A DNA stretch of 64,000 nucleotides from a virus (lineage: Duplodnaviria > Heunggongvirae > Uroviricota > Caudoviricetes): IMG/VR virus record IMGVR_UViG_2721755711_000002. One strand, written 5' to 3'. Of this stretch, positions 17,032 to 17,778 are shown piece by piece. The position numbers were made by a program, and so were the translations under genes. The number at the start of each line of letters is the position of its first letter. Positions within the stretch are counted from its first letter, which is position 1. The notes under the pieces were generated by a model that did no database searches, had not been told where the DNA came from, and worked only from the letters and a program-made list of their open reading frames with translations.

Positions 17032-17778
17032 ATGAATGAAGCTTGTTCTGTTGTTTTTGTTCATTCCCCGTTTGTTGTGCTCTTTGAAGGAAAAGAGCTC
17101 TCTCTGGAAAGTGGTAGTGCACTTCTTGTCAGGGGGGGGGGAGCTGGATCGTTATTGCCCTTTTCGGAATGTTTTCGGCGAATAAGTCTCAGTGAATCGA
17201 CAATTATCCGTTACCTGTTGTGTGGAGACGAAAAACAGGATGTAGTTTTAGTCCGGCAAATACCACGATATCTTTGCGTGAGTTTTCCCAAGGCAGAATT
17301 GATGGGCATCCTGATTGATTATCTTTGTGAGGAAAAGATTCATACGGACAATTTAGCGGAAATGCTTTCCTTTTCGTGTCTGGCGTTTTTCTCATCAGAG
17401 AAAATGTTTTCGTCGTTTCTGACCGCGTGTATTGGCAATATTAGTGACAGGCTTAGTGCATTGTTTCGTACGGACATTGCAGCAAACTGGACTCTGAGAG
17501 ATGTGTCTTCGCGGTTATGTATCAGTGAAAGTTTGTTAAAAAAAAGACTGAAAGAAGAAGGCACCTGTTTCAGTGAGTTGTTGCTTACAGAGAGAATGAG
17601 AATGGCAGCAATGCTGTTGACTCAATCTCGTTGCGCCATCAACAGAATCGCTGCTCAGTGTGGCTATAATTTTACATCTTATTTTATCAGCGTATTCAGG
17701 AGTTATTTTGGTGTTACACCGGCAGGTTACAGGATGGCTGCATTCAATGAGATGAGTTTAAGTGTTACTCAAGAATAA
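17032..17778 (+). CDS. AraC-family transcriptional regulator (AppY/GadX-like), moron
   Basis: 248-aa ORF; C-terminal SESLLKKRLKEEGTCF and GYNFTSYFISVFRSYFGVTP match AraC HTH signatures; AT-rich gene and upstream region. Confidence 0.8.
   Translation: MNEACSVVFVHSPFVVLFEGKELSLESGSALLVRGGGAGSLLPFSECFRRISLSESTIIRYLLCGDEKQDVVLVRQIPRYLCVSFPKAELMGILIDYLCEEKIHTDNLAEMLSFSCLAFFSSEKMFSSFLTACIGNISDRLSALFRTDIAANWTLRDVSSRLCISESLLKKRLKEEGTCFSELLLTERMRMAAMLLTQSRCAINRIAAQCGYNFTSYFISVFRSYFGVTPAGYRMAAFNEMSLSVTQE

Follow-up and report, generated by a model that had tools for sequence, protein, structure and literature searches.

A probable accessory AraC/XylS-family regulator gene between the Q and holin genes of a lambdoid prophage

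Acid resistance, motility, biofilm formation and type III secretion of Escherichia coli are all subject to rewiring by AraC-family regulators encoded on prophages, for example AppY, PatE, PsrA and PsrB. PatE (Z0321), encoded on OI-8/CP-933H of enterohaemorrhagic E. coli (EHEC) O157:H7, activates gadE, gadBC and hdeAB; like PsrB, it binds the promoter of hdeA, and both proteins activate gadE (reviewed in PMC10877973). PsrA (Z1789) and PsrB (Z2104), two secretion regulators that prophages of EHEC O157:H7 encode, induce GadE and YhiF and in this way raise acid resistance and repress type III secretion (reviewed in PMC10877973). AppY, encoded on the cryptic prophage DLP12 of E. coli K-12, directly activates gadE, gadY, nhaR and hyaA; under its action, acid survival and biofilm formation increase and motility declines (PMC10057817). 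Here, we describe a related gene (hereinafter referred to as the regulator gene) in a 64,000-nucleotide stretch of DNA (hereinafter the window) of the Caudoviricetes record IMGVR_UViG_2721755711_000002 from the IMG/VR database. The regulator gene lies between the Q-type antiterminator and holin genes of a lambdoid prophage, and its product, a protein of 248 amino acids (aa), is very probably an intact accessory regulator of the AraC family.

Two Pfam helix-turn-helix (HTH) profiles matched the C-terminal part of the protein above their cutoffs, HTH_18 at 53.1 bits (cutoff 33.6) and HTH_AraC at 49.3 bits (cutoff 26.6). The first-pass annotation, which was made from the letters of the window without database searches, had recognized a 248-aa AraC-family regulator here, and the open reading frame (ORF) and both profile matches agreed with that call. 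The protein has already been annotated as an AraC-family/HTH protein in RefSeq. It also matched PHROG 1450, a family without an assigned function, over its full length (1e-55), indicating that the curators of that phage database had already grouped such proteins without giving them a role. [quoted passage not shown]

A search for the closest characterised homologue, which the first-pass annotation had recommended, was performed with BLASTP and returned ECs_0287 of the Sakai prophage Sp1 (39% identity over 234 aa). We presume that ECs_0287 is PatE, because it is the sole AraC-type gene of the prophage at thrW. Identity was 36% to GadW, 36.5% to YdeO and 30.5% to AppY; the alignments with these three proteins and with ECs_0287 covered residues 1-233, and that with GadX (40%) was confined to the C-terminal half. 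The label "AppY/GadX-like" given in the first-pass annotation thus named the right subgroup, whereas AppY and GadX are more distant from the protein than GadW, YdeO and the presumed PatE. The top NCBIfam matches were the models for YdeO (NF007407, full length, 149.6 bits) and GadX (NF007432, 98.9 bits), followed by HilD. Orthology to YdeO or GadX was rejected, since these scores were well under the equivalog cutoffs of the two models (348 and 500 bits, respectively); the protein is therefore a paralogue of YdeO and GadX. It is likewise an orthologue of none among ECs_0287, GadW, YdeO and AppY. At no more than 39% identity to any studied member, it represents an uncharacterised branch of a known group.

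The sequence motifs of the subgroup were retained. An N-terminal M-x-x-x-C-S-V was common to the protein, ECs_0287, GadW, YdeO and AppY, and was replaced by MQSLHGNCLI in GadX. The first recognition helix followed the pattern SES-L-(L/I)-K-K/R throughout the group, with SPS in GadX, and S165, S167, L168 and K170 (numbering of the protein) were invariant in the alignment of the protein with its relatives. K170 aligned with K170 of AppY, the residue whose replacement by glutamate (K170E) abolishes DNA binding (PMC10057817).

A structure model was built with AlphaFold (AF2) from 18 homologues. Its mean predicted local distance difference test score (pLDDT) was 81, with values of 83-96 per ten-residue block in the DNA-binding domain. 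The latter superimposed on the GadX domain (3mkl) with a template modelling (TM) score of 0.92 and a root-mean-square deviation of 0.9-1.1 A, and also matched MarA, the DNA-binding domain of AraC, and AdpA. Over the whole chain, the best full-length structural matches were Rns, CsvR and ToxT (E-values of 1e-13 to 1e-9). These regulators combine an N-terminal beta-rich domain able to hold a fatty acid with a C-terminal domain containing two HTH motifs. In the model, the N-terminal regulatory/dimerisation domain of the protein appears to resemble the fatty-acid-binding domain of Rns and ToxT. Sequence similarity to Rns, CsvR and ToxT began only at residue 75-112, the identity was about 20%, and the overall TM score was just 0.40, so the inter-domain geometry is uncertain: either the arrangement of the domains differs or the model is unreliable there.

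Among the described systems, the presumed PatE shows the closest likeness: it is prophage-borne, is a two-domain AraC/XylS protein of about 247 aa, and shares both the M-x-x-x-C-S-V start and the SESLLK helix with the protein. The two nevertheless differ in 61% of residues and in location. ECs_0287 and its relatives in phage records (gp29 of ev099, and mEp332; 37-39% identity to the protein) occupy the b-region, where they are flanked by the tail-fibre assembly gene and int, whereas the regulator gene occupies the slot between Q and holin. AppY is likewise a prophage-encoded AraC-type activator, of 249 aa and alignable over its full length; in contrast to the regulator gene, appY is situated at the far right end of DLP12 beside ompT, outside the late operon. 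GadW and YdeO show full-length homology, and the DNA-binding domain of GadX is 40-44% identical to that of the protein. Unlike the regulator gene, which is phage-borne and rare, the genes for these three proteins are core or near-core chromosomal genes (acid fitness island or ydeO locus). PsrA and PsrB, by their published descriptions, resemble the protein in being prophage AraC-like regulators. No AraC gene was found in the Sakai prophage Sp6, which was searched for PsrA. A group of 243-aa proteins (P0015-P0019; 36-37% identity) is encoded in the Q-to-holin slot too, together with lipocalin, DUF1722 and a different type of holin, so this location has a precedent; this group might conceivably include PsrA and PsrB.

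The start codon was assigned to the ATG at position 17032. A longer ORF of 306 aa opens at an in-frame ATG at 16858, and this candidate was rejected because the extension would span two terminator-like hairpins and because the homologues uniformly begin with MNEACSV. Among complete E. coli genomes, the nearest copies were 744 nt long (247 aa) and 98-99.5% identical. In an end-to-end alignment with the commonest form, the sole differences of the window protein were one added glycine and the substitution N197T. Exactly the same 248-aa protein is present in GenBank from E. coli (APJ79803.1) and was found on 10 contigs representing two prophage backbones; the allele is therefore inherited and not a product of sequencing error. 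A fragmentary or inactivated gene, the outcome that the first-pass annotation had singled out as fatal to its proposal, was ruled out in the window, where the protein could be aligned end to end with its 247-aa homologues; such disruption did occur in some other strains.

The added glycine arises from a run of ten guanines (G10), where the common allele has G7; the frame is kept. No other G or C run in the 64-kb window reaches 8 nt, and the polymorphism of this tract is the only unusual feature of the gene. G7 was found in 38 of the 41 close copies in complete genomes, in all 12 metagenome contigs, and in nearly all close copies in IMG/VR; 41 of all the collected loci had the G7 string. G10 was present in the window and seven other loci, and G9 in two loci, through a synonymous change from GGA to GGG. 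Frameshifting G5 and G6 alleles occurred on at least two allelic backgrounds, so that run lengths of 5, 6, 7, 9 and 10 coexist among copies at least 97% identical. Off-frame lengths yield annotations truncated to 158 aa; such products were recorded on at least 36 contigs, compared with about 152 contigs encoding full-length products, among the listed cluster members. Other disrupted copies carried a 2-bp deletion or an insertion (loci L067 and L068). In diverged alleles (74-86% aa identity), the tract was interrupted (AGG GGA GGG, AGG GGT GGA or AGG GGC GGG), indicating that the uninterrupted run is recent and lineage-specific and does not constitute a conserved switch. We read the G tract as a mutational hot spot of recurrent gene loss that is in frame and longer in the window allele. 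Separately, the codons for the first recognition helix (LLKKRL) contain an A8 run (17538-17545). All alleles examined have A8, and two assembled proteins (P0009 and P0010) were frameshifted exactly there; slippage might occur at this run too, or the run might give rise to sequencing errors.

Several lines of evidence indicated that the regulator gene forms a discrete cassette. The G+C content was 0.40-0.45 over the gene; on the upstream side, from DUF968 through Q, it was 0.48-0.57, and in the terminator and holin region just downstream it was 0.48-0.56. Terminator-like hairpins were in excess: 11 were found within 2.5 kb, compared with 2.5 +/- 1.4 in shuffled sequences, and hairpins with T-runs stood on both sides of the gene (at 16846 and 16889, and at 17803 and 17915). 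Both the AT-rich composition and the flanking terminators described in the first-pass annotation were thus borne out. The second upstream hairpin and its T-run were present in six of six compared alleles. In one of them (P0005) the stem was altered (CCTGTC..GACAGG) with the hairpin kept, so it is the structure and not the sequence that is conserved. The first downstream hairpin (17803) was kept in most diverged alleles. In addition, a non-coding block of about 45 nt, which ends 30 nt 5' of the ATG, was near-invariant across alleles whose coding sequences had diverged to dS values of 0.25-0.58; it includes a putative promoter of the regulator gene. Rfam searches detected no RNA element near the regulator gene, the sole match in the window being a distant ALIL pseudoknot.

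The limits of the cassette were delineated by comparison with E. coli SE11, which was about 91% identical to the window over 13670-16937 and again over 17862-18160. The DUF968-RusA-Q-PemK backbone and the holin of the window recur in SE11, where a tRNA-like sequence, TerB and DUF3927 replace the regulator gene. The homology break points place the cassette at approximately 16938-17861. Furthermore, alleles of the regulator clade were located directly downstream of three unrelated Q families (PF06323, PF06530 and PF03589). Owing to the swap in SE11, the mosaic Q context, the conserved flanking signals and the lower G+C content, the gene appears to be a true accessory (moron) cassette, as the first-pass annotation had proposed. 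That annotation had also placed it between a Q-like gene and the lysis genes; the order is right, but a PemK-like gene intervenes on the upstream side, and of the lysis genes just a truncated holin gene is left. The Q-to-holin slot itself is a hot spot for cargo. Alternative cargo occupies positions 4771-6184 of the SE11 locus (L072), and in strain C41 (L079) a tRNA-Arg gene (2596-2671) separates a frameshifted regulator gene from the holin gene. The coordinates of the features are listed in Table 1.

Table 1. Features of the regulator cassette and of the surrounding prophage DNA in the window.
Feature	Position	Strand	Remarks
DUF968 gene	13988-15046		Upstream backbone
RusA	15047-15412		Upstream backbone
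Q-type late antiterminator	15403-16098	+	PF06323, 280 bits, 1.5e-83; PHROG 304 "anti-termination protein Q-like", 3.2e-105
Terminator-like hairpin and T-run just 3' of Q	16165-16186	+	CCCGCCGCCGAGCGGG TTTTTT
PemK/MazF-like gene	16291-16692	+	Pfam PemK_toxin, 52 bits; PHROG 15698; PHROG 1936 "MazF-like growth inhibitor"
Two tandem intrinsic-terminator-like hairpins	16846-16878, 16889-16909	+	Before the regulator gene
Putative promoter of the regulator gene	16972-16998	+	TTGTAT, 15-nt spacer, TATACT; conserved as TTGYAT
AraC/XylS-family regulator gene	17032-17778	+	248 aa; ATG at 17032; intact
G10 homopolymer	17132-17141	+	Codons 34-37 (R-G-G-G); common allele G7
Two-HTH DNA-binding domain	17506-17733	+	Residues 159-234 (Pfam); recognition helix SESLLKKRL, residues 165-173
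Terminator-like hairpins	17803-17828, 17915-17936	+	Between the regulator gene and the holin start
Phage_holin_8 holin, 5' fragment	17956-18239	+	PF16931 profile positions 1-81 of 121 only
ISEc12 (IS21 family) inside the holin gene	~18240-20788	+	istA 18380-19921; istB 19933-20682
Mu-like transposable prophage, ~38 kb	~20789-58496 (approximate)	-	Between ISEc12 and the remaining lambdoid prophage

The protein was under purifying selection, as indicated by ratios of non-synonymous to synonymous substitution rates (dN/dS) of 0.22-0.39 among five alleles (74-99% aa identity), for which pairwise dS was 0.16-0.59 (0.22-0.59 against the window gene). The gene was rare, being present in 64 of 5426 complete E. 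coli genomes (1.2%): 41 genomes carried copies at 97.5-99.5% identity and 23 carried a 91% variant. Complete genomes with the close allele were for the most part from cattle, the farm environment, beef or mutton, and the listed carriers of the 91% variant were nearly all porcine enterotoxigenic E. coli (ETEC) or wild-boar isolates. Overall, the listed sources were mostly bovine, farm, food and porcine. All named sources of the gene were E. coli, and no relative was found among the GTDB representatives (one genome per species). Among deposited phage genomes, no copy reached 60% identity, the best match being 40.5%. In IMG/VR, 47 loci were found, nearly all of which were prophage fragments from isolate genomes.

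Our explanation of the locus, which we hold to be reasonably probable as a whole, is that an intact AraC/XylS-type transcription factor is carried in a self-contained cassette and activates host genes. The cassette would consist of a terminator, a weak promoter, the gene and a further terminator, inserted in the slot between Q and holin. In a lysogen, the regulator gene would be transcribed from its own promoter, with the flanking terminators insulating it from phage late transcription; upon induction, polymerase modified by Q would read through these terminators. The protein may then use its SESLLKK helix to bind AT-rich sites in host promoters that overlap the -35 element or lie next to it and, like AppY, PatE and PsrB, activate host genes, most probably targets of the gadE, hdeAB and gadY type (acid-fitness-island regulators and chaperones). 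Judging from its relatives, it is quite likely that the protein acts mainly on host promoters and not on those of the phage. For acid-resistance genes being among its direct targets, the case is evenly balanced by the same analogy; this estimate reflects the fact that the studied members of the subgroup all converge on the acid fitness island. The broader proposal of the first-pass annotation, reprogramming of host acid resistance, respiration or virulence, would likewise be drawn from relatives at 30-39% identity.

A number of points weigh against this explanation. The characterised relatives are only 30-39% identical to the protein and the YdeO and GadX equivalog cutoffs were failed, so common targets are not assured. 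The window contains no host chromosome and hence no candidate target promoters. A scan for the sigma-70 consensus missed the putative promoter, owing to its short spacer (15 nt), and the -35 element matched at four of six positions. The window allele departs from the common form by the extra glycine of its G10 tract and by N197T. Frameshifted or otherwise disrupted copies make up a sizeable minority of strains, which shows that the regulator gene is dispensable; it may be only weakly selected. Finally, the literature searched contained no mention of the RefSeq protein and none of an AraC moron between Q and holin.

The disrupted copies also bear on the first of the alternative explanations, that the gene is a decaying passenger, intact by chance and without selected function, in which G10 would be a step toward a frameshift. 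We consider this unlikely. The G5 and G6 alleles on at least two backgrounds, the 158-aa products and the copies with a 2-bp deletion or an insertion are all expected of such a gene, as are its presence in just 1.2% of complete E. coli genomes and the defective state of the prophage that carries it. Against these stand the dN/dS values of 0.22-0.39 over alleles diverged to a dS of 0.58, which amount to long-term purifying selection, and the non-coding promoter block, which is better conserved than synonymous sites. The G10 allele, moreover, is in frame and recurs on 10 contigs and two prophage backbones.

Alternatively, the regulator could serve the phage and, in its carrier prophages, tune late or lysis gene expression or the choice between lysis and lysogeny, and the arrangement of the loci lends this some appeal: in every locus of the clade the gene sits immediately 3' of a Q gene, and copies at 97-99% identity have a linked holin of a single type (Phage_holin_8), the linkage spanning 16889 to 18168-18222. 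On the other side, TerB/DUF3927, and not the holin gene directly, comes after the diverged allele P0003, and SE11, with the same Q-PemK backbone and holin, lacks the regulator gene, so the functions of the phage do not need it. The gene is bracketed by terminators, has its own conserved upstream block and persists in a prophage bereft of lysis genes, and the nearest characterised relatives of its product are host regulators or prophage regulators acting on host promoters. A phage-serving role is thus rather improbable. Least convincing, and in our judgement very doubtful, is that the gene is a contingency locus, in which slipped-strand changes in the G run toggle the regulator and its regulon within populations, so that G10 would act as a hypermutable on/off switch by which a programme of acid resistance or virulence imposed by the prophage would come and go at random in subpopulations of lysogens: this would account for the sole long G/C run of the window, the spread of run lengths among near-identical genes and the recurrence of frameshifting lengths on separate backgrounds, but the run is interrupted in diverged alleles, G7 is overwhelmingly dominant and near fixation, and some G5 and G6 alleles come from multi-megabase contigs in which long-read homopolymer errors are plausible (the platform being our assumption), and the gene was therefore not filed as a contingency locus. 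The preferred explanation remains that of a host-directed regulator in an accessory cassette.

Upstream of the cassette, the Q gene marks the start of the late operon that holds it. The hairpin just 3' of Q would, by analogy with the layout of the lambda late operon, be in a tR'-type position. By eye, a possible pR'-like promoter (TTGCAA, 17 nt, TACATT) was discerned directly after Q within 16083-16186, with the strong terminator hairpin about 50 nt past it, an arrangement that resembles pR'-qut-tR' of lambda. The product of the PemK/MazF-like gene was 133 aa as called in related contigs (L004), and a perfect TATAAT was observed upstream of the gene (16202-16207). No antitoxin gene was called beside it in the related contigs. 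The PemK/MazF-like gene is adjoining cargo that lies outside the AraC cassette. A role in anti-phage defence was considered and rejected, as PADLOC returned no match for the regulator or for its PemK-like neighbour.

Downstream, the holin gene was cut after about 95 codons; homology to intact holins of 129-130 aa stops at 18168-18222. The interrupting element was 99.8% identical over its full length to annotated copies of ISEc12, with terminal inverted repeats at 18252-18279 and 20722-20749. The Mu-like prophage that follows was recognized from genes for Mu transposase, an AAA ATPase and an HTH protein (54000-58500), and from a tail fibre assembly ORF (20837-21436). Lambdoid homology restarted at 58497, in the region 3' of the endolysin gene in sibling prophages, and hence the 3' part of the holin gene, the second holin gene and the endolysin gene are absent. 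From its gene content, the lambdoid prophage appears to be defective and unable to lyse the cell by its own genes, with the regulator gene nonetheless intact. The holin/endolysin region of the Mu-like prophage (46345-47632, minus strand) showed 64-70% DNA identity to the lysis cassettes of sibling lambdoid prophages, and could in principle supply lysis in trans. The ALIL pseudoknot (RF01497, 121.5 bits; 35848-35964, minus strand) adjoined ORFs at 34328-35065 and 35188-35922. Such pseudoknots are frameshift elements of IS3-family insertion sequences, and the match points to one of these sequences within the Mu-like prophage.

To specialists, a regulator of this kind on a prophage will be unsurprising, and the value of the locus lies in providing a concrete candidate and not a new principle. 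Were the G tract to act as a switch, the locus would represent a slippage-driven, phase-variable regulon on a cryptic prophage, a mechanism uncommon in E. coli. The survival of the regulator gene in a lysis-dead prophage agrees with the view that beneficial cargo of defunct phages is retained by their hosts. If the regulator also drives the GAD system, it could add to the differences in acid survival among livestock-associated and Shiga-toxigenic E. coli.

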